The notes beneath the pieces are model-generated. The model did not search any database. It was not told the origin of the DNA and saw only the letters and a list, made by a program, of their open reading frames with translations. The translations under genes were made by a program, and so were the position numbers. Positions 98-10,182 of a DNA stretch of 64,000 nucleotides are shown one piece after another (within the stretch, counting starts at the first letter, position 1; each line of letters opens with the position of its first letter). The stretch covers positions 896,001 through 960,000 of the forward strand of contig CBDDDZ010000005.1 of the NCBI GenBank assembly GCA_965226795.1. The letters run 5' to 3'. Source of the DNA: Candidatus Latescibacterota bacterium (GTDB taxonomy: Bacteria; Latescibacterota; UBA2968; GCA-2709665).

Positions 98-1051
98 ATG
101 GTTCGCGTCCTGATATCGGTGTGGATCGGTGCCTGCGGCCTCGCGTTGTCATCCCCCGACACCGGCGCCGAAGTTGCTTTCGACGCGAGGGTAAATCGGG
201 ACACCCTCACGGTCGGCGATCCCGTTCTCCTCGGTCTGCGGATCAGGCGCGAAACGGGGGATGTCGCCGTACTTATGCAGAACGAGGGTTTTCTCGCGCC
301 GTTCGAGGTGCGCCGCCAGGTGCCGCCGGCGGTTCGGGAGATGTCCGACGGACGCGTGGAGGAGACCTTGGCATTCGAGCTTGCCGTGTACAGGGTGGGT
401 GTGATCGAAGTGCCCTCTCTGGTATTGCAGGTGCGCACGGCGGAGGGCGATTCCGGATTAATCACGTCCGAGCCGATACCGGTTCTGGTACGCAGCGTCA
501 AACCGGCGGAAATGACGGACATCCGGGATGTTAAGCCGCCGGTCGACATTGAGGCGAGAATACCGGGCTGGCTTTGGTTCGCAGTGGCCGTTCTGGCTGG
601 CGTCGTGGCCGGAACGCTTTGGTATTGGAATCGACGACGCAGGAAACCGGAGGTTGAGCCGCCGCCGCCCATCGTCTGGCCAGACGAAGTTGCGAAGATT
701 CTGCGGATGCGATTGGTGGAAAAAGGTGCGTTCAAGCGGTATTACAGTCTGCTTTCCGAGGTGATGCGCCGGTACCTGGAGGATCGGGTCCGGGTCGATG
801 CAATGGAGTGTACCACATCCGAACTGGTTCAGGACCTCAGACGTGTCTCGATCGGGGAAGCGGAGGTTGCGGCGCTGGAGGGCTTGTTGTCGGAGGCGGA
901 CCTGGTAAAATTCGCGAAGCTCAGGCCCCGTGATGAGGTTGCAACGAAGGCCGCGGAAACGGTTCTGGACCTGATGCGGCGGCTGGACGAACAGCGCCGC
1001 CAGAGTGAAGACGATGCTGTGAACGCGGCGCCGGCGGAAGCGACGGCATGA
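98..1051 (+). CDS. Bat-operon-associated exported/membrane protein (BatD-like N-terminal Ig fold, one TM)
   Basis: Signal peptide, RDTLTVGDPV start, DIRDVKPP motif, TM segment, ADLVKFAK C-terminal motif; overlaps batA start. Confidence 0.75.
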   Translation: MVRVLISVWIGACGLALSSPDTGAEVAFDARVNRDTLTVGDPVLLGLRIRRETGDVAVLMQNEGFLAPFEVRRQVPPAVREMSDGRVEETLAFELAVYRVGVIEVPSLVLQVRTAEGDSGLITSEPIPVLVRSVKPAEMTDIRDVKPPVDIEARIPGWLWFAVAVLAGVVAGTLWYWNRRRRKPEVEPPPPIVWPDEVAKILRMRLVEKGAFKRYYSLLSEVMRRYLEDRVRVDAMECTTSELVQDLRRVSIGEAEVAALEGLLSEADLVKFAKLRPRDEVATKAAETVLDLMRRLDEQRRQSEDDAVNAAPAEATA

Positions 1052-2034
1052 TTGAATTCAAGAATCCGGAATGGCTGTTTGCCCTGCTTTTTGTGCCGTT
1101 TCTGATTTATCGATATGTACGCCGGCAGAGGCAGCGGCAGGGCAGCATTCGTTTTCCGGATCTGGGTGTGATCGGGCGGATTCCGCCATCGATTGTGCTT
1201 AAGCTGCGCCACGGTCTGATTGCACTCCGCTGTCTGGCGTTGATATTGCTGATTGTTGCGCTGGCGCGCCCGCGTTCGGGGCGCGAAGGGAGGGAAATCC
1301 TTACCCGGGGAATCGATATTGTACTCGCCCTGGACGTATCGGGCAGCATGGCGCACAAGGACCTGGATCAGCAGCGAAAGTCCCGGCTGCAGATCAGCAA
1401 GGAGGTCGTGAGCCAGTTCGTGCGCGGGCGGGTCAACGACCGGCTGGGGCTCGTCGTCTTTGCAGGTGAAAGCTACACACAGTGTCCGCTCACCCTCGAT
1501 TACGGAATATTTCTGAGCTTTTTGAACGAGGTCCGGCTCGCGGAGGATTCCTGGGACGGCACAGCCATCGGAACCGGCATTGTCACGGCCGTAAACCGGT
1601 TGCGCCGTTCGGAGGCCAAAAGCCGTGTGATTATTCTATTGACGGACGGCGTGAATAACAGAGGGGAGGTGGATCCCGTTACGGCCGCGCGGGCGGCCCA
1701 CGCGGTGGGCATTCGAATCTACACCATCGGGGCGGGAAGCGACGGGGTGATCGTGATGGGCCAGGGCTTGCTCCGGCAGCGGGTTCGGGTCGAAATCGAC
1801 GAAGAGACATTGAAGGAAGTCGCCGACATCACGGGCGGCCGCTACTTTCGGGCGACCAGCGAGAAGAAACTGGAGGAGATTTATCGTGCCATCGGCGAGA
1901 TGGAAAAAACGGAAATCAAAACACGCGACTACGTGAATTATTCCGAATTGTTCACCCTTTTTCTCTGGCCGGCTCTTGTTTTGCTTGGCGTAGAACTGAT
2001 GCTGGCGAACACGCGGTTTCGAAGGATTCCTTAG
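1048..2034 (+). CDS. batA: BatA, von Willebrand factor A domain protein
   Basis: N-terminal F-x-NP-x-W-L, LARP motif, MIDAS DVSGS, GTAIG, LLTDG. Confidence 0.9.
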   Translation: MIEFKNPEWLFALLFVPFLIYRYVRRQRQRQGSIRFPDLGVIGRIPPSIVLKLRHGLIALRCLALILLIVALARPRSGREGREILTRGIDIVLALDVSGSMAHKDLDQQRKSRLQISKEVVSQFVRGRVNDRLGLVVFAGESYTQCPLTLDYGIFLSFLNEVRLAEDSWDGTAIGTGIVTAVNRLRRSEAKSRVIILLTDGVNNRGEVDPVTAARAAHAVGIRIYTIGAGSDGVIVMGQGLLRQRVRVEIDEETLKEVADITGGRYFRATSEKKLEEIYRAIGEMEKTEIKTRDYVNYSELFTLFLWPALVLLGVELMLANTRFRRIP

Positions 2035-2035
2035 G

Positions 2036-3058
2036 ATGCGTTTCGGGGACGTCCAGGCATTTTGGTTCCTGTTGTCCGTGCCGGCGGCCGTTTTGTTTTT
2101 CGTGATCGCTTTTCGAAAGAAAAGGCGGGCCCTCGCTCGTTTCGGGAGTCCGGAACTCATGCGGAAGCTGACGGCGGCCACAAGTTGGAAGAGACAGTGG
2201 GTGAAGGCGGCCCTGACGGCTGGCGGACTCTTCTTTCTGGTGATGGCGCTGGCGCAACCACGGTACGGGATGCGGCTTGAACTGTTGCACCGCAAGGGTG
2301 TCGACGTGATTGTCGCACTGGATACGTCGCTGAGCATGCTCGCCGAAGACATCCGGCCCAATCGACTGACGCGCGCGCTTTTTGAGATTGAATCATTTAT
2401 TGACCGGCTCGAAGGCGATAGAATCGGCCTTGTCGCGTTCGCGGGTCGGAGCTTTACACTTTGTCCGCTCACCCTGGACTATGGCGCCGCGAAGCTGTTT
2501 CTTGACTCGATCGACACCGATTTCATACCGGTTAAGGGCACGGCGATAGCCGAAGCCATTCGGGCGGCGACCCGGGCTTTCGGCAGCGAGGAACGCAAGT
2601 ACAAGGTTATGGTGCTGATTACGGATGGAGAGGACCACGCCGACGATCCGGTAAAGGCCGCGAACGAGGCGGCGGAAGCCGGGGTGCGGATATTCGCGGT
2701 GGGTGTCGGGACGCCTGAAGGAGAGTTGATCCCGGTAAAACAGAACGGCCGGACCGAATTCTTGAAAGACGGCCGGGGCAATTACGTGAAGTCGCGCCTG
2801 GACGAGGTTAGCCTGCAACAGGTTGCCGGTGTGACAGACGGAGTCTATATTCGGGCGCAGTCGGGCGGTGTGGGCATGGACCGGGTGTACGGCGAGATCT
2901 CGCAGATGGAGAAGAAGGAACTGGGATCGCGAAAGTACACGCAGTACAAACACCGGTTTCAGTGGCCGCTGGCTGTCGCGGTGGCCTGTTTTGTCTGCGA
3001 GGCAATGTTGTCGGATCGGCGAAGGGTGCGAACACAGTGGCGAGGGCGGTTTCAGTAG
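2036..3058 (+). CDS. batB: BatB, VWA domain protein
   Basis: MIDAS DTSLS, PNRL, PLTLDY, ITDGED; tandem with batA. Confidence 0.88.
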   Translation: MRFGDVQAFWFLLSVPAAVLFFVIAFRKKRRALARFGSPELMRKLTAATSWKRQWVKAALTAGGLFFLVMALAQPRYGMRLELLHRKGVDVIVALDTSLSMLAEDIRPNRLTRALFEIESFIDRLEGDRIGLVAFAGRSFTLCPLTLDYGAAKLFLDSIDTDFIPVKGTAIAEAIRAATRAFGSEERKYKVMVLITDGEDHADDPVKAANEAAEAGVRIFAVGVGTPEGELIPVKQNGRTEFLKDGRGNYVKSRLDEVSLQQVAGVTDGVYIRAQSGGVGMDRVYGEISQMEKKELGSRKYTQYKHRFQWPLAVAVACFVCEAMLSDRRRVRTQWRGRFQ

Positions 3059-3089
3059 CTTGAACTCGGATTCACCAGGAGTCTGCTCC

Positions 3090-3899
3090 ATGCACCGGTA
3101 TCTGATTGGCATCGTCGTCGTTCCGCTTCTGGGTTTCACAATTCTGGATCCGGCGGCGGACAAGAACCGGCAGGGCAACCGCAAGTTTCACGAAGGCAAG
3201 TTCGAGGAAGCGCTAGAGTTCTACCGGGAAGCTCAGGTAGAAAAACCTGACGCGCCGGAACTCAGATTCAATGCGGGCGACGCCTATTTCAAGAAGAATG
3301 CCTTCCAGGACGCACTGAGGGAGTTCGGGCACGCGTTGAAAAGCCAGGATCCCTCGTTTCTCGCGAGGGCGTATTACAATATGGGCAATGTCCACGTTCG
3401 CCAGCAGAAGCTGCAGCAGGCGGCAGAGGCCTACAAACGATCGCTGACGTTGCGGCCGGACGATCTGGATGCAAAGGTGAATCTGGAATGGGTTCTGGAG
3501 AAAATGCAGGAGGAGGAGAAGAAGCAGAACCGGTCACAGGAGCAACAGGAGAACGGCCAGGAGCAGGAGGAGAACAGGAACGAGCAGAACAAAGAGGAAC
3601 AGAATGACGAGGAGAATCGGGATCGGTCAGAGGACCCGCCGAATCAGGACGCAGACGGGAATCGCGATCAGAACCGGGAAAAACAGGAAGATGGGGAGCA
3701 GGAGCGGGGCGGGAAGCAGGACGATCCCGGAAGGCAACGGCAGAATCAGCAGCCAACGGAATCGGAGTCGCGGTCGGATGCGCTGAGTCGGGAAGAGGCC
3801 GAACGCCTGCTTGATGCGATGAAAGACAGGGAGTTGAAATCCCAAAAGTACCGCCGGCTGCGCGTTTACGGCAAACGATACAAGGGAAACGAGTGGTAG
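3090..3899 (+). CDS. batC: BatC, TPR protein with Q/E/N-rich linker
   Basis: Start re-called to ATG 3090 after AGGAG; TPR motifs (FNAGDAYFK, YYNMGN), low-complexity linker, EAERLLDAM and terminal W. Confidence 0.85.
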   Translation: MHRYLIGIVVVPLLGFTILDPAADKNRQGNRKFHEGKFEEALEFYREAQVEKPDAPELRFNAGDAYFKKNAFQDALREFGHALKSQDPSFLARAYYNMGNVHVRQQKLQQAAEAYKRSLTLRPDDLDAKVNLEWVLEKMQEEEKKQNRSQEQQENGQEQEENRNEQNKEEQNDEENRDRSEDPPNQDADGNRDQNREKQEDGEQERGGKQDDPGRQRQNQQPTESESRSDALSREEAERLLDAMKDRELKSQKYRRLRVYGKRYKGNEW

Positions 3900-3901
3900 G
3901 A

Positions 3902-5725
3902 ATGGCACGAAAGCCCCTCCGTGTTGTTATCTTGGTCCTTCTGGTTTCGTGCGGTTCGGCGCTTGCCGAAACTCCGCGCCTTCAGGTGTCTGTCGACCGG
4001 ACACGCGTGGAGGTGGGCGGGCAGGTCACGCTTACGGTAACGTTGACGGCCGGCGGCGACGTTACCGACCCGGAACTGCCGATACCGGACGGATTCGACG
4101 TTACGGGGCGTTCGTCCTATACATCCCAGGGACTGAATATCACGAACGGCCAAGTGGTAACGACGCGAAAAAACTCGTACGTATATACCCTGCGGGGAAG
4201 GCACGAGGGCAGTTTCTTCATTGGCCCGGCGCACGTGGTGTATCGGGGCAGGCGGCACGAGTCCTCGACGGTTCGGGTGAATGTCGTAAAAAGCAACGGG
4301 CGGCCGCGCACACGCCCCGCGCCGGCGCCGAGACAGTCCCTTGGCAGTCGGGATGTGGAGGAATTGGAGGAGGACCTGTTCGTTGCCACAACGGTGGATA
4401 AGAACAGAGTGTATGTGGGAGAGCAGGTAACCGTTACCTACAAGCTTTACACACGGAGGACGCTGCGCAATATCAGCTATGGCCGCCTGCCTGCCTATAC
4501 CGGTTTCTGGTCGGAGACTCTGTTCGACGCTCAGCGCGCCAGTTTTGTTCGCGAGGTTTACGATGGGCGCGAGTTCGACGTGATGCGTTTGAAAACGATG
4601 GCGTTGTTTCCCACCGCGTCCGGAAAACAGGCGCTGGGCGAGCTTGAAGTCGTCTGCCAGGTTCAGGAACGCGCGAGGAGCAGGAACCTTTTCGACATGG
4701 ACGGCTTTTTCGGTTCCGGTAACAACCGGGAAGTGCGCGCGGGTTCTGAAATCGTGGAGATTGAAGTCTTGCCGCTGCCCACGGGCGCTCCGGCCGAGTT
4801 CAGCGGCGCGGTGGGAAGGTTCGACATATCGGTTGCGGCGTCGCCGGTTTCGGTCGCGGAAGGAGATCCAGTCGCGGTAAAGGTGAGGGTGCGTGGAACG
4901 GGCAATCTGAATGCCGTGGGCGAGCCCGTTCGTCCGAAGGGGAACGCGTTAAAGTTCTACGACCCGAAGTCAACTGTAAACGTCGGCAACAAGAATGGTC
5001 GCATCGGCGGCGAAAAGACGTTCGAATATGTCGCGATTCCCAACCGGCCCGGCAACGGACGCATCGGTCCGTTTTTGCTGGCCTATTTCGACCCTGAAGA
5101 ACAGCGTTATCATACCGTGCGTTCACAGGTGGTTTCGGTGAGCGTGACACCGGGCAGGCAGCCCGCAGGTTCCGGACCCCTATTGAGCCGGAAAGAGATT
5201 GAACTGCTCGGGCAGGATATTCGTCATCTGAAGCCGGATCTCGATTCTCTGGAAGATCACGGCAGGCTGTTATACAGGAACAAATGGTTCTGGGCAATTC
5301 AGTTTGTGCCCTTTCTCGGTTTTCTCGGTATCGTTGCGTATAAACGCCACCGGGACCGGCTGATGGGCGACGTGGCCTATGCCCGGCGGCGGCGTTCGGG
5401 TTCCGAGGCCCGGAGGCGCCTGATACAGGCTCGAAAGCGGCTGGATGATAAAGACGGACTGGCGTTTTATGTCGAAATCGACAGGGCGTTGGCCCAATTC
5501 CTGGCGGATCGACTGAATCTGCCGGTCGCGAGCATGACCCGGGAGTCCGCCGCGCAGGCGCTTTGCGAGAAGGATGTACCGGATTCAATCGTGTCTGAAG
5601 TGAAGGATGTCTTTTTGCGCTGCGATTATGCACGATTTGCCTCGGTCCGGATGCCGGAGAAGGAGCGGGAGGAATTCTATGGCGCTGCGGCTGCGTTGAT
5701 CGATGCCCTGGGAGCCAGGATATGA
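3902..5725 (+). CDS. batD: BatD family protein
   Basis: Signal peptide, VYVGEQV, FSGAVGRF, GTGNL, YFDP motifs; operon position. Confidence 0.88.
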   Translation: MARKPLRVVILVLLVSCGSALAETPRLQVSVDRTRVEVGGQVTLTVTLTAGGDVTDPELPIPDGFDVTGRSSYTSQGLNITNGQVVTTRKNSYVYTLRGRHEGSFFIGPAHVVYRGRRHESSTVRVNVVKSNGRPRTRPAPAPRQSLGSRDVEELEEDLFVATTVDKNRVYVGEQVTVTYKLYTRRTLRNISYGRLPAYTGFWSETLFDAQRASFVREVYDGREFDVMRLKTMALFPTASGKQALGELEVVCQVQERARSRNLFDMDGFFGSGNNREVRAGSEIVEIEVLPLPTGAPAEFSGAVGRFDISVAASPVSVAEGDPVAVKVRVRGTGNLNAVGEPVRPKGNALKFYDPKSTVNVGNKNGRIGGEKTFEYVAIPNRPGNGRIGPFLLAYFDPEEQRYHTVRSQVVSVSVTPGRQPAGSGPLLSRKEIELLGQDIRHLKPDLDSLEDHGRLLYRNKWFWAIQFVPFLGFLGIVAYKRHRDRLMGDVAYARRRRSGSEARRRLIQARKRLDDKDGLAFYVEIDRALAQFLADRLNLPVASMTRESAAQALCEKDVPDSIVSEVKDVFLRCDYARFASVRMPEKEREEFYGAAAALIDALGARI

Positions 5726-6549
5726 CGGGCGGGCACGGCCGGACCGACCGGCGCCGGAGGCCCCGCCGGGCTTTGGATACCGGCCTCCCGTCGGCGGGCA
5801 CGTTCTTGCACACGGTGCTGATAATTCTGCTGGTTGCCGGGAACGCCCGGGGCGACGGGACGGGTGCGAGGATGTATAATGATGCGAACGCCCTTTATCG
5901 GCAGGGTGAATTCAAAACGGCGGCGGGTCGATACGAAGAAGTGGTGTCTCAGGGCGTGCGGAATGGCTATGTTTATTTCAATCTGGGCAATGCCTATTTC
6001 AAGACGCGAGAAATCGGACAAGCCATTCTCGCCTATGAGCGGGCTCTCAGGTTGATGCCGGGAGACGAGGATGTACTTGCGAATATGAGGTTTGTGAACG
6101 CCCTCAAAGAGGATAAGAATCCGGACGAAGACGTCAATCTTCCAACCCGCGTTCTATCGTCCGGTTACCGACTGCTAAGCGCGGACGTGCTGTCCGTTTT
6201 GTTGACCGTCTGTTTGTTTATGATGTCAGCGGCCGCCGTGTTCTGGCTTTATTCGTCCTCCCGTCGTTCGTTATGGATCGGGCTGCTGGTGCTGACGGGC
6301 CTCGGGTTGTGCGGTTCGGGCGCGCTTCTGACGTACAGGGTTCATGCCGAGGCGTCCGCTTCGGACGCGATCGTTATGGCGGAGGAGGTGCAGGGCCGAA
6401 GCGGCCCGGGGGACGATTATCTGCTGGTTTTCAAGATCCACGAAGGTACGAAGGTGGCTATTGAACGCGTCGAAGACCGCTGGTGTCTGGTGCGATTGCC
6501 AGACGGCATTGGCGGATGGGTGCCGGGGGATGCGGTCGAGAAAATCTGA
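5722..6549 (+). CDS. batE: BatE, TPR + SH3b protein
   Basis: [23 protein letters not shown], two TMs, C-terminal HEGTKV...GWVP SH3-like domain. Confidence 0.85.
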
Positions 6550-6662
6550 ACTGCGCAACACGGTTTTTCGGATGGGAGCGGTACGCTCGATTCAGGCCTG
6601 CGCGAACCGAAACAACCGGTTTTCCGAAAAATGCTGGTTTCGTCTTTATATCAAGGATCGGC

Positions 6663-8009
6663 ATGATGTCGTATAGAGCATGGTTTCAGTGTTTTAGGGG
6701 ATGCGGGGGGCGCTATCGACTGACGCAGATCATTTACGCGTGTCCGAAGTGCGGCGGCCTGCTGGAGGTGCGCCACGATCTGGATGCATTGCGCTCCAGG
6801 TCGCCGCAGTACTGGCGTGAGTTGTTCGATCGACGGTATATGCGCACGGTGTGGCCCTACGGCAGTTCGGTGTGGGGAAAGAAGGAAATGGTCTGCCCCG
6901 TTGTGGACGACGACAACGTGGTATCGATGTATGAAGGGGGCAGCAATCTGTTCTGGGCGGAGCGACTCGGGCGTGAAATCGGGGTGGAGAACCTGTGGGT
7001 CAAGCAATGTGGGAACAGCCATACCGGTTCGTTCAAGGATCTGGGCATGACCGTCCTGGTGTCAATGGTGAAACAAATGGTTGCGGAGGGTCAGCGGATC
7101 CCCGCAGCGGCTTGCGCCTCCACCGGAGATACTTCAGCGGCTCTGGCCGCATATTGCGCGCACGCGGGCATACAGGCGGTTGTGTTCCTGCCCCGGGATA
7201 AGGTCTCCACGGCCCAACTCGTCCAGCCGATGGCAAACGGGGCGCTGGTGTTGAGTCTGGACACGGATTTCGACGGGTGTATGAAGCTGGTTCAGGAAAT
7301 ATGCCAAAGGGAAAATATCTACCTGGCCAATTCGATGAATTCGCTTCGCGTGGAGGGTCAGAAAACCGTCAGCGTGGAGTTGCTCCAGCAGTTCGATTGG
7401 GACGTGCCGCAGTGGATAGTCGTTCCAGGGGGCAATCTGGGAAATGTCAGCGCACTGGGCAAGGGCTTTGGCGAGTTGAAGGAGATGGGTCTGATCGACC
7501 GGGTGCCCCGAATCGCCGTTGCACAGAGTTACCGCGCGAATCCGCTTTACCGGAGCTACTGCAACGGGTTCGATACCTTTGAGCCGCTCAAGGCACAAAC
7601 GACCCTGGCCAGCGCCATCCAGATCGGAGATCCGGTCAGTGCGGAAAAAGCGATCCAGACCCTGAAGAACATCGGCGGCGTGGTGGAGCAGGCCACGGAT
7701 CAGGAACTGGCCGATGCGGCGGCGCGGGCGGATCGAACGGGGTTGTTTTCATGCCCGCATACGGGTGTGGCCTTTGCTGCGCTTATCAAGCTGGTCGACC
7801 GCGGCGTCATTCGGAAAGATGAACGGGTTGTGGTGATTTCCACCGCTCACGGGCTGAAGTTCGCCGAGTTCAAGATCAGGTACCACCTGGAGGAACTTGG
7901 GGCGTTCGGCGTGGACCCGAACCATGCGAATCTGCCCGTGGAATTGCCGGCCGAATACGGACCGGTTCGGGATCAGATCTTTCGGACGCTTGATTTGAAC
8001 GATGGTTGA
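6663..8009 (+). CDS. thrC: Threonine synthase, plant-like subtype
   Basis: PLP lysine motif [34 protein letters not shown]; start re-called to ATG 6663 after AAGGA. Confidence 0.93.
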
Positions 8010-8034
8010 CAGCGATGGGACAATTGGTTACATT
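8006..8034 (+). promoter_or_regulatory. sigma70-type promoter for the riboswitch/CGS transcript
   Basis: TTGACA (8006-8011), 17 nt spacer, TACATT (8029-8034). Confidence 0.7.
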
Positions 8035-8052
8035 CAATGACCAAAATCAGCG

Positions 8053-8103
8053 TAGTGGTGATTTGAGGCATATTGCAGCCACTATAAAGAAATCGCTAAA
8101 AAG
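8053..8103 (+). ncRNA. SAM-II (SAM_alpha-like) riboswitch aptamer
   Basis: AGTGGTGATTTG...TTGCAGCCACT.TAAAGAAATCGCTAAAAAG follows the recalled SAM-II consensus (GUGGUGAUUU, UUGCAGCCAC, AAA, UCGCUAAA); TAGTGG/CCACTA stem; lies upstream of a methionine biosynthesis gene. Confidence 0.88.
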
Positions 8104-8143
8104 CTGACCACCAATACGACTGTCGGTTGCGTATTCAGGTTCT

Positions 8144-8172
8144 CTGGGGCTTTTTGGCTTCAGTTTTTTTTT
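8144..8172 (+). terminator. Intrinsic terminator (riboswitch expression platform)
   Basis: CTGGGGC/GCTTCAG stem (8144-8163) followed by a run of 9 T. Confidence 0.75.
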
Positions 8173-8191
8173 GTGGACACCGGAGGATACG

Positions 8192-9385
8192 ATGGAAAAG
8201 AAGCCATCACTGAATGGCGCTTGCAGTTCTACCCGTGCGGTTCACGCCGGGGAAGAGAGGGGGCATTGGGGCCATTCCCTCACGGTGCCGATCGCGCAGA
8301 CGTCGACCTATGTATTCGAAAACACAGCGGCGGTGGACGACTTCGTATCCGGGCGCTCAACCCGACTTGACTACGGTCGTTACGGAAACCCGACGCAGCA
8401 GATTGCGGAACGAAAACTGGCCGAAATCGAGGGAGCGGAATCGGCGCTGTTGTTTTCCTCCGGCATGAGCGCGTTGACCACCACGCTTCTGGGCATGTTG
8501 TCAACGGGTCACCACGCCGTGATTACCGACGACTGTTACCGGAAGACCGCACAGTTCTGCGAACAGTTGCTGAAAAAGTTCGGTATCGCCACGACCTTCG
8601 TTCCGGCTGGCGACTATGCACGGCTCGAGTCGGCCATGCAGGAGAATACGAGGGTGGTGATTGCGGAGTCTCCAACCAACCCGCACCTGAACGTGATGGA
8701 CCTGGAAGAGGTTGTCGCCATCGCAAAAGCGAACCGGACGAAGGTCGTGATTGACAGTACGTTTGCCACGCCGTTCAACCAGCGTCCTCTGGAATTTGGA
8801 GTGGACTTGGTCATTCACAGCGCAACCAAGTATCTGGGGGGGCATAACGACCTTATCGCCGGTGCTGTTCTTGGCCCCGAGCCGCTGGTATCGGCAATAA
8901 AGGACTATCGCGGTATCCTGGGCGGGGTGATCGACCCACACTGCGCGTATCTGCTGATCAGAGGCATCAAGACATTCCCGTTGAGAATGGCGCGTCAGAA
9001 CGAGACGGCGCTGGCGCTTGCACGGTTCCTTGAGGACAGCCGCAAGGTGCGACAGGTATACTATCCTGGACTGGAGAGCCACCCGCACCATCGGGTTGCC
9101 CGGGAGCAAATGAAAGGGTACGGCGGCGTGGTGAGTTTCGATCTCAATGCGGATTTAGCCGGAACCATGGCGTTCCTCGATCGCCTGGAGATTCCGTATA
9201 TCGGCGCGAGCCTGGGTGGGGTGGAGAGCATCGTCTCTCATCCGTCTACCATTTCCTACTACGAAATGGCGCGGGAAGACCGGGTCGCCATAGGGATCAG
9301 TGACGAATTGGTACGTTATTCTGTCGGAGTTGAGGACGCGGAAGACCTGATTGACGACGTGGAACGGGCGCTGGAGGCTGTTTAA
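8192..9385 (+). CDS. metB: Cystathionine gamma-synthase (Cys/Met metabolism PLP family), plant-like
   Basis: YGRYGNPT, SGMSA, ESPTNP, HSATKYLGGHND, SLGGVES; GGAGG SD before ATG 8192. Confidence 0.85.
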   Translation: MEKKPSLNGACSSTRAVHAGEERGHWGHSLTVPIAQTSTYVFENTAAVDDFVSGRSTRLDYGRYGNPTQQIAERKLAEIEGAESALLFSSGMSALTTTLLGMLSTGHHAVITDDCYRKTAQFCEQLLKKFGIATTFVPAGDYARLESAMQENTRVVIAESPTNPHLNVMDLEEVVAIAKANRTKVVIDSTFATPFNQRPLEFGVDLVIHSATKYLGGHNDLIAGAVLGPEPLVSAIKDYRGILGGVIDPHCAYLLIRGIKTFPLRMARQNETALALARFLEDSRKVRQVYYPGLESHPHHRVAREQMKGYGGVVSFDLNADLAGTMAFLDRLEIPYIGASLGGVESIVSHPSTISYYEMAREDRVAIGISDELVRYSVGVEDAEDLIDDVERALEAV

Positions 9386-9429: not shown

Positions 9430-10182
9430 ATGTTCGGTCCGTTTGTTGTATTCGCGTTGCGGGCGCCGTTACAGGATGAGCGCTGGCGGCAAAAGGTCCT
9501 GCTGGGTGGTTTGCTGTCTCTGCTACCGAGTCTGGCATTGCTGCTCGCCGTCTTTATGGCGCTGGGAAAAGTCTCCATCATGTTTGCGCCCGTGGCGGTC
9601 GTTTTCTTCGTGTTCCCGACACTCGTTTGGTGGGGGTATGTCTATCGTGTCTTTGTAGACGCGTTAAACGGTCTGGAATTCCGCCGAATGCCGGAGTGGG
9701 GCGCGTGGAAGCAATACGCGGGCGTGGGGGTCCGGCTGGGAGTGATCTATCTGGGATATCTGTTCCTGGTCGGCCTGGGAGCACTTGCCGTGATGGCAGT
9801 TCTGGGACTGGTTCCTCCAGGAGAAGATCCGACCCGGCTGAGCGCGATCACGTTGCTGCTGATTGGCACCGCTATGATGCTATACGGGCTCCTGCCAGTC
9901 GTTTTTGCGCGGTTTGCCGCGGAGGGAAAGATATGGGCTTCGTTCGACCCGGGCGCGATCCTTTCGGACATTCGGCGGGTGATCCGGGGCGGTCGGTACA
10001 CACAGGCGTGTCTTGCCTTTTATCTCTCTTACGGGTTGCTGTTTCTCCTGAATGTGATACTGGCCGCCGTACCGCCGGTGGCCATGTTTGTTCTCTCGGT
10101 TGGCTCGTTTTATCTGATGGTGGTGTTCGCCTGGGTCTTCGGGTGGCTGATCGGGGTACGGGGTGCGGATAATTCCAGGTAA
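9430..10182 (+). CDS. Multi-pass membrane protein, DUF4013-like
   Basis: W-x-x-KVLLGGLL, GYVYRV, MPEW-x-x-W pattern and several hydrophobic helices. Confidence 0.65.
   Translation: MFGPFVVFALRAPLQDERWRQKVLLGGLLSLLPSLALLLAVFMALGKVSIMFAPVAVVFFVFPTLVWWGYVYRVFVDALNGLEFRRMPEWGAWKQYAGVGVRLGVIYLGYLFLVGLGALAVMAVLGLVPPGEDPTRLSAITLLLIGTAMMLYGLLPVVFARFAAEGKIWASFDPGAILSDIRRVIRGGRYTQACLAFYLSYGLLFLLNVILAAVPPVAMFVLSVGSFYLMVVFAWVFGWLIGVRGADNSR

Follow-up and report, generated by a model that had tools for sequence, protein, structure and literature searches.

In plants, threonine and methionine synthesis part at O-phosphohomoserine, and reviews describe this branch point together with the activation of plant threonine synthase (TS) by S-adenosylmethionine (SAM) and the MTO1 control of cystathionine gamma-synthase (CGS). 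Streptomyces albulus obtains homocysteine from O-phosphohomoserine through the MetM/MetO/Mec/MoeZ route (Hasebe et al., 2024, as reported in 10.1101/2024.10.14.618325 and PMC12172450), and a 2026 preprint lists no users of O-phosphohomoserine for methionine other than plants and Streptomyces MetM (10.64898/2026.09.15.751699). The GapMind 2026 preprint (10.1101/2024.10.14.618325) covers the MetM route and puts forward a bifunctional MetBX, and the DUF39 protein of Desulfovibrio is the subject of an earlier proposal (PMC4045070). Here we describe a locus in a 64,000-nucleotide stretch of DNA (the window; GenBank GCA_965226795.1, contig CBDDDZ010000005.1, positions 896,001 to 960,000) from a Candidatus Latescibacterota bacterium. 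It consists of a thrC gene, a SAM-II riboswitch and a CGS-like gene, and on balance we favour the reading that an adjacent pair of plant-type TS and CGS, with a SAM-II switch in front of the CGS gene, competes for O-phosphohomoserine made by ThrB.

The plant branch point (Arabidopsis TS1, structures 1e5x, 2c2b and 2c2g; tobacco CGS, 1qgn and 1i41; Arabidopsis CGS1) provides the nearest solved relatives of both enzymes. As in plants, the catalytic CGS residues are kept, a homoserine kinase is present, no acylation enzyme was found in the genome, and the CGS gene is predicted to be repressed by SAM. In contrast to plants, the two genes are adjacent here and fused in some lineages, the CGS has neither a transit peptide nor an MTO1 extension, a predicted SAM-II terminator switch takes the place of the nascent-peptide arrest of plant CGS1, no beta-lyase was found in the genome, and the bacterial TS carries four N-terminal cysteines, a motif absent from Arabidopsis TS. 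The locus resembles that of S. albulus MetM in that a SAM riboswitch precedes the key gene and O-phosphohomoserine is the predicted substrate. MetM, however, is described as a TS homolog (fold type II) dependent on a thiocarboxylated carrier protein, whereas the candidate here is a CGS-family enzyme of fold type I without an adjacent carrier gene. The proposed MetBX of Xanthomonadales (GapMind 2026 preprint) and MetY/MetZ are also cases in which one Cys/Met-family enzyme seems to reach homocysteine without MetC, but these use acyl-homoserines from MetA/MetX, and the CGS-like protein of this locus falls under the MetY and MetZ model cut-offs. The SAM-II elements described by Corbino et al. (2005; PMC1273637) likewise have a promoter just upstream, an intrinsic terminator downstream and a methionine gene behind; P2 is reported there as required for binding, and an OFF switch is predicted. 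The present case differs from that description in its Latescibacterota lineage, its plant-type CGS gene and a conserved antiterminator in which the aptamer tail pairs into the terminator.

All features of the locus lie on the forward strand. An initial annotation, made from the letters of the window, had placed thrC next to a CGS gene with a SAM-II riboswitch between them, and both reading frames and a match to Rfam RF00521 ('SAM_alpha') are present at those places. The thrC gene, encoding the plant-type TS P0001, occupies 6663/6666–8009 and has 448 codons counted from the ATG at 6663; the ATG at 6666 is the more likely start, given an AAGGA 8 nucleotides 5' of it and the change A6663T in an RNA-library contig. 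A sigma-70-type promoter-like site (TTGACA, 17 nucleotides, TACATT; 8006–8034) overlaps the thrC stop codon and is followed by the aptamer (8045–8119), whose 3' tail (8095–8105) is a predicted antiterminator strand with 11 base pairs possible with 8148–8158. An intrinsic-terminator-like hairpin of 8 base pairs (8144–8163), followed by nine T, occupies 8144–8172, and the plant-type CGS-like gene, encoding the 397-residue P0002, runs from an ATG at 8192 to 9385 with GGAGG at 8182–8186. Every protein motif quoted in the initial annotation was recovered: P0001 contains [32 protein letters not shown] and [15 protein letters not shown], and P0002 contains YGRYGNPT, DCYRKT, IPYI and SYY. The genome (G000), 95.9% complete, totals 5.41 Mb over five contigs, and the nearest named relatives of P0002 are from Candidatus Latescibacterota, with 71–95% identity. 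RNA-library contigs from four of the 20 runs listed cover both genes, wholly or partly; as they carry no information on strand, level or termination point, they were not counted toward regulation.

Judged by their sequences, both enzymes are plant-type. For TS, the resemblance noted in the initial annotation was borne out by a structure-library search, in which the best PDB match of P0001 is Arabidopsis TS (1e5x/2c2b; 560 bits, residues 8–440) and the next structure reaches 187 bits. P0001 also passes TIGR00260 (218 bits against a cut-off of 167), and its pyridoxal phosphate (PLP) lysine, K125 in SFKD, is invariant in all 57 bacterial relatives compared. The four N-terminal cysteines that set it apart from Arabidopsis TS (C10, C14, C27 and C30) are kept in 89–96% of these relatives; this CxxxC...CxxC motif, encoded at 6663–6752, is possibly a zinc site. 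Among ten positions that we take to be the SAM-site residues of plant TS, six are identical in P0001 (P65, Y66, G67, S88, N95 and L96), two are conservative (Y90 and R104) and two are different (M89 and E109). All 57 bacterial relatives share P65, G67, S88, N95 and L96, and these SAM-site residues also form the dimer interface. The location of the plant SAM sites at this interface is stated in a preprint (10.64898/2026.04.17.719144), and the conservation of the interface residues in P0001 could serve dimerisation alone. The chances that SAM allosterically activates P0001, as in plants, seem to us about even.

The best PDB match of P0002 is tobacco CGS (1qgn/1i41; 404 bits), followed by methionine gamma-lyase at 317 bits, and among the 25 NCBIfam matches listed none is over its cut-off. 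Scores of 308 bits against the MetY model (cut-off 495) and 345 bits against the MetZ model (cut-off 510) exclude a MetY or MetZ identity by model score, not by tree. A FastTree phylogeny of 249 sequences combined CGS proteins from the retrieved loci and domains taken from fusion proteins with representatives drawn from 1.84 billion searched proteins; E. coli MetB and MetC were included, as were plant and algal CGS (named tips from Phtheirospermum, Brassica, wheat, barley, Micromonas and Hemiselmis). Alignments of fewer than 320 residues were dropped, Arabidopsis and tobacco CGS were left out, and the trees held no named MetY or MetZ tips. P0002 and the plant and algal CGS grouped into one clade of 131 tips (support 0.96), with the other 118 sequences, including E. 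coli MetB and MetC, outside. The same clade was recovered by IQ-TREE in fast mode on a 58-sequence subset, with a support of 100 in the SH-like approximate likelihood ratio test (SH-aLRT); there the plants and algae (92) formed a sister group to the bacterial sequences (91) and were not nested within them. The predicted kinship with plant CGS, as opposed to bacterial MetB and MetC, was therefore upheld by both trees. In a structure search with the P0002 fold model (mean predicted local distance difference test score, pLDDT, 80.5), tobacco CGS ranked first and second.

The phosphate pocket of plant CGS, which we take to be formed by tobacco E107, Y111, K165 and S403, reads D60, Y64, K118 and S355 in P0002. 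The Tyr, Lys and Ser that had been proposed for this pocket are present; their diagnostic value proved only partial, since the equivalent of Ser355 also occurs in 73 of the 118 sequences outside the CGS clade and the Lys is Glu in three of seven plant sequences. Lys or Arg occupies position 118 in 31 of the 33 syntenic clade members and in 49 of the 53 further bacterial ones, and Gly does so in 83 of the 118 sequences outside the clade. No literature on the phosphate-pocket residues was found in open-licence PubMed Central (PMC) and bioRxiv. Unlike plant CGS (EC 2.5.1.160 type), P0002 lacks the MTO1 region: it has no N-terminal extension and its catalytic core begins at residue 14, whereas six of seven plant sequences have 47–153 residues before the core. 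Its PLP lysine is K213, and the plant catalytic residues K261, Y163, R423 and N211, named as such in PMC8428831, correspond to K213, Y116, R375 and N163.

The rest of the genome was searched for the enzymes that would supply P0002 or follow it. ThrB (293 bits) and a homoserine dehydrogenase are present, and MetA, MetX, MetY and DUF39 were not found by profile searches of the 95.9%-complete genome, in which control genomes behaved as expected; a ThrB without MetA or MetX is what the initial annotation had anticipated. P0002 is the only Cys/Met PLP-family protein found in the genome. As for a cystathionine beta-lyase, no MetC-family or PatB/MalY protein over cut-off was found in the same genome, the best candidates being aminotransferases, and a search with E. 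coli MalY returned only aminotransferases at 21–22%; a cryptic beta-lyase could nevertheless be present. In the proposed pathway, ThrB would make O-phosphohomoserine, P0001 would turn it into threonine in competition with P0002, and P0002 would swap the phosphate for a thiol, likely starting methionine synthesis. Because the acylation enzymes were not found, exclusion points to O-phosphohomoserine as the substrate, and we consider its use by P0002, with replacement of the phosphate by a thiol, to be likely. Because no beta-lyase was found, P0002 may also reach homocysteine alone, with sulfide directly or by cleaving cystathionine as well, a step for which the arguments seem evenly balanced.

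The sulfur supply seems intact: CysH and CysK both pass their cut-offs, and the genome also has a NirA-like reductase and a cysM-mec-carrier-rrf2 cluster. E. coli CysE gave only short partial matches in the genome and no full-length homolog. The cluster, at G000:C5:445012-448335 (L135:7013-10336) near cysH, comprises a cysM-like gene and cysK together with genes for a JAB peptidase, an Rrf2 regulator and a MoaD-type carrier whose Gly-Gly is followed by two last residues. Cysteine may come from O-phosphoserine via the carrier protein, in which case serine and homoserine would both be phosphate-activated.

The gene pair was surveyed in a phylum sample of 121 genomes of at least 90% completeness. 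Members of the CGS clade occur in 105 of them and plant-type TS in 100, with both in 98, and in 92 of these 98 the genes are adjacent on one strand with thrC first. MetA, MetX and MetY are all absent from 86 of the 98 pair-carrying genomes. The remaining 12 have an acyltransferase (MetX or MetA), always together with MetY, and across the phylum 25 of 26 acyltransferase genomes have MetY, a 149-bit MetX match in G097 being left out of the count. Among the other 23 genomes of the sample, MetA or MetX was detected in 14 and DUF39 in three; DUF39 was found in none of the 98. ThrB or HomK is present in all 105 genomes with a CGS-clade member, and the lack of ThrB in some pair-carrying genomes, considered as a possible problem, is explained by HomK. 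The kinase type splits by lineage (families f1, f2 and f4 against f3 and f10), with only ThrB in the order of the window (47 of 47) and HomK in most of f3 and all of f10.

The pairing extends beyond the phylum. Among the best 80 loci, plant-type thrC lies directly upstream of the CGS gene in 30 (nine Latescibacterota, 13 Methylomirabilota, seven labelled Deltaproteobacteria/Binatia and one other), and in some of the loci outside the phylum sample the stop and start codons overlap. In addition, fusions of TS and CGS, about 850 residues long (~848), make up 63 of the 77 longer homologs, and two of these fusions are named Nitrospira/Nitrospirota. The survey of synteny that had been suggested thus found the pair conserved within the phylum and in other phyla, and the TS-CGS pair is, as far as gene content tells, a widespread variant of a known pathway logic.

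The match to RF00521 at 8045–8119 scores 43.7 bits, above the gathering score of 36, and is the only one in the genome; the core letters of the aptamer are invariant in 19 of 19 aligned copies. An aptamer lies within 450 nucleotides upstream of the CGS gene in 48 of the 55 sampled genomes with a SAM-II match, 45 times between adjacent genes; three of the remaining genomes are split by contig ends and four have matches elsewhere. In G091 and G112, thrC is far off and the riboswitch remains with the CGS gene. The expectation of a conserved thrC, SAM-II and CGS order held in part: the riboswitch goes with the CGS gene, but none lies between the genes in 47 of the 92 adjacent pairs of the phylum, and 19 loci of other lineages gave no Rfam match when scanned. 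The SAM-II riboswitch is lineage-limited, and two unlinked CGS-clade members are preceded by SAM-I riboswitches instead. Riboswitch control of thrC was considered and rejected, as no Rfam match or promoter-like site was found 5' of thrC and the spacer at 6545–6670 folds like its shuffles (z 0.11). Since thrC lies upstream of the switch, it would not be under its control, and the switch is predicted to turn off the CGS gene only.

How the switch may work was examined in 27 riboswitch loci, comprising the seven first found and 20 chosen across families from the 55 genomes with a match. A scan for promoters and terminators gave three promoter-like sites against 1.5 expected and three terminators against 3.2 expected, so that a single consensus site is not above chance. 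A terminator is nevertheless present in 27 of the 27 loci, with stems that differ in sequence, and a promoter with a TAnnnT -10 box in 22; because they are conserved over the riboswitch loci, the promoter and terminator of the window are taken as real, and the promoter at 8006–8034 is predicted to give the CGS gene a transcript of its own. The duplex between the tail (8095–8105) and 8148–8158 has an energy of -15.1 kcal/mol, with none of 200 shuffles as good, and in 23 of the 27 loci the corresponding duplex is stronger than at least 95% of its shuffled versions. This tail-into-terminator antiterminator is conserved over three families. In the SAM-bound structure the tail is buried in the pseudoknot. 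At low SAM, the free tail would pair into the terminator and the CGS gene would be transcribed; at high SAM, the tail would be locked in the pseudoknot and transcription would stop at about 8170. Calculated folds weigh against so simple a picture. When full-length transcripts are folded at equilibrium from the predicted start, the terminator prevails in 24 of 27 loci even in the absence of SAM (0.87 in the window), the antiterminator is dominant in two-thirds-length transcripts in only 17 of 27, and its value in the window is 0.11–0.12 from the predicted start against 0.96 when the fold begins at P1. As equilibrium folding is mixed, switching would have to be kinetic, and such a kinetic switch is likely. 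With this qualification, we regard SAM-dependent transcription termination in front of the CGS gene, as modelled here, as probable.

The reading of the locus as a competing TS-CGS pair must be weighed against several further observations that speak against it. The fold of P0002 does not separate CGS from methionine gamma-lyase (template modelling score, TM, 0.87 against 0.85–0.88), and the basic residue at position 118 is not invariant, being Lys or Arg in only four of seven plant sequences (Glu in three) and Gln in seven of eight fusions. The genomes of the phylum sample are kin and their assemblies incomplete, so the counts describe rather than test. At least two Cys/Met-family matches occur in 86 of the 98 pair-carrying genomes, and the six second family members examined score 325–367 bits, under the cut-offs for methionine gamma-lyase, gamma-lyase and beta-lyase; any of them could be a beta-lyase, in which case a one-enzyme homocysteine step would be wrong. 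MetX and MetA were also searched for in 50 genomes of the best 80 loci, for which completeness is not given: 18 of the 28 genomes with unlinked clade members have one of them, and among the 22 syntenic genomes two have a strong and two a mid-scoring MetX. In the genome itself, the identity of the methionine synthase is ambiguous, as the candidates, a split MetH-like cluster and a core MetE-like gene, all stay under their cut-offs, and there are four further TS-like genes (L091:5658-6932, L092:5218-6333, L093:5601-6821 and L094:5197-6534), one of which passes PRK08197 (597 against 303 bits) and one of which comes after an ornithine-cyclodeaminase-like gene. No assay of any enzyme of this CGS clade or of P0001 was found in the searched literature.

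Three other explanations of the locus were weighed. A plant-like transsulfuration in two steps, in which P0002 joins O-phosphohomoserine and cysteine to cystathionine, to be cleaved by another enzyme (the unlinked paralog of 40–45% identity found in most relatives, a promiscuous aminotransferase or a desulfhydrase), would fit the grouping of P0002 with plant CGS. It would leave the branch point unchanged and alter just the product of P0002. A second family member is present in 12 of the 14 other genomes of the genus, cysteine is likely available (CysK over cut-off and a cysM-mec-cysO cluster), and at 95.9% completeness a beta-lyase gene could have been lost from the assembly. Yet 12 of the 98 pair-carrying genomes have a single family member, some of them near-complete and on a single contig (G148, 100% complete on one contig; G140, 99%; G088 and G102, 97% on one contig each); PatB/MalY exceeds its cut-off in only one of the 121 genomes and in none of the 98; E. 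coli MalY matches only distant aminotransferases in the genome; and no gene of the methionine pathway neighbours any of the six paralog loci examined. These facts leave the two-step route as a rather unlikely account that still deserves consideration. P0002 might instead use O-acetyl- or O-succinylhomoserine from an unrecognised acyltransferase, or be a methionine or cystathionine gamma-lyase, its pairing with thrC then reflecting aspartate-family clustering. Arabidopsis CGS can stand in for MetB in an E. coli metB knockout (PMC8428831), so that the clade may accept acyl-homoserines, and B. subtilis is described as retaining O-acetylhomoserine without MetA activity (10.64898/2026.09.15.751699). 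The acyltransferases of the genomes with unlinked clade members would agree with this, and the second-best PDB and NCBIfam matches of P0002, all methionine gamma-lyases, with a lyase. But MetA, MetX and CysE were not found in the genome, the acyltransferases of the phylum track MetY and not the CGS gene, and both the fusion and the tight coupling are specifically with TS. SAM repression suits a biosynthetic gene, and a SAM-OFF switch would be ill-suited to an enzyme that degrades methionine. Altogether we judge these acyl-homoserine and lyase alternatives improbable.

The least probable alternative, to which we give very little credence, is that a MetM-type enzyme, either P0001 or one of the four other TS-like genes, makes homocysteine with a Gly-Gly sulfur carrier and that P0002 has a side role. 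The MetM/MetO/Mec/MoeZ route does exist and MetM is often misannotated as TS (GapMind 2026 preprint, 10.1101/2024.10.14.618325), and the genome has a JAB peptidase, the Gly-Gly carrier described above and the extra TS-like genes. The carrier, however, sits in a cysM-mec-carrier-rrf2-cysK cluster, with the same three genes as the actinobacterial mec-cysO-cysM locus. The best match to the carrier in the plasmid collection was of this mec-cysO-cysM type and not metM-metO. No carrier-like gene adjoins any of the five TS-like genes, the four other than P0001 have no Rfam riboswitch, and the sole SAM-II aptamer of the genome precedes P0002, while P0001 itself matches the assayed Arabidopsis TS at 560 bits. 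A rough motif scan of the genome for a MoeZ-type E1 found nothing and was uninformative.

The competing TS-CGS pair thus remains our preferred reading. The initial annotation had proposed a possible plant-type branch point with a riboswitch in place of MTO1; the enzyme types, ThrB, the absence of MetA and MetX from the searches and the CGS-linked switch agree with it, but the downstream route may differ from plant-like transsulfuration, as no beta-lyase was found in the genome. A still broader proposal is that bacteria of several little-studied phyla have a complete SAM-governed branch point, in which a SAM-activated TS is paired, through adjacency, translational coupling or fusion, with a CGS-family enzyme that reaches homocysteine without acylation or a beta-lyase, the SAM-II switch replaces MTO1 in this lineage, and the pair is the sister of the plant module, derived from non-cyanobacterial bacteria. 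We offer this only tentatively and consider it doubtful as a whole. If it were true, one metabolite would open the threonine arm via a protein, by allosteric activation of P0001, and close the methionine arm via RNA.

Should the pair work as proposed, it would fill a gap in methionine biosynthesis in at least 86 of the 121 sampled genomes of the phylum, and probably the same gap in Methylomirabilota, Binatia and Nitrospirota, where the known routes through acylation or DUF39 are missing. The pair would then form a second bacterial route from O-phosphohomoserine after MetM, and P0001 would be the first non-plant test case for the SAM allostery of TS, which a review describes for the plant enzyme. 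P0002 would be a natural CGS without an MTO1 region, possibly without need of a beta-lyase, and as such useful in methionine engineering. The pair would also bear on the origin of both plant enzymes. A phylogeny of plastid-related genes (Sci Rep 2012;2:955; PMC3518814, Figs S76–S78) lists, among its tree tips, Myxobacteria, Chloroflexus and Planctomycetes beside plant CGS, and the same groups with Leptospira, Desulfovibrio, Fibrobacter and Kuenenia beside plant TS. Bacterial sisters of both enzymes are thus already in print; the part of that study consulted here is silent on whether the genes are paired, on the substrate, on absent acyltransferases and on riboswitches. A search of open-licence PMC and bioRxiv, which did not extend to the subscription literature, brought up no report of a bacterial pair of plant-type TS and CGS and none of SAM-II in this phylum.

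Some other features were recorded near the genes discussed. The core (short) MetE-like gene (G000:C5:297-5117, L095; 166 against 406 bits) lies three genes downstream of thrB on the same strand. The split MetH-like cluster (G000:C2:670752-677611, L137) includes a corrinoid protein, an AcsV-like activase, a methyl-tetrahydrofolate methyltransferase and a homocysteine-binding domain, and the homocysteine S-methyltransferase family has 12 matches in the genome, which is unusually many. In some genomes of the sister family (L012:3860-4000, L145, L146 and L156), apparent tandem terminator-like hairpins follow the aptamer, each with a loop able to pair with the tail. At L016:3324-3750, an extra open reading frame, CrcB/Fluc fluoride channel-like by eye, lies between thrC and the riboswitch promoter. 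In the window, positions 98–6549, 5' of thrC, hold a BatA-E-like cluster of von Willebrand and TPR proteins, named by eye and with TPR matches in the profile scan. At 9430–10182, 45 nucleotides 3' of the CGS gene, lies a gene for a 250-residue membrane protein without an NCBIfam match, which is kept in five Latescibacterota loci.

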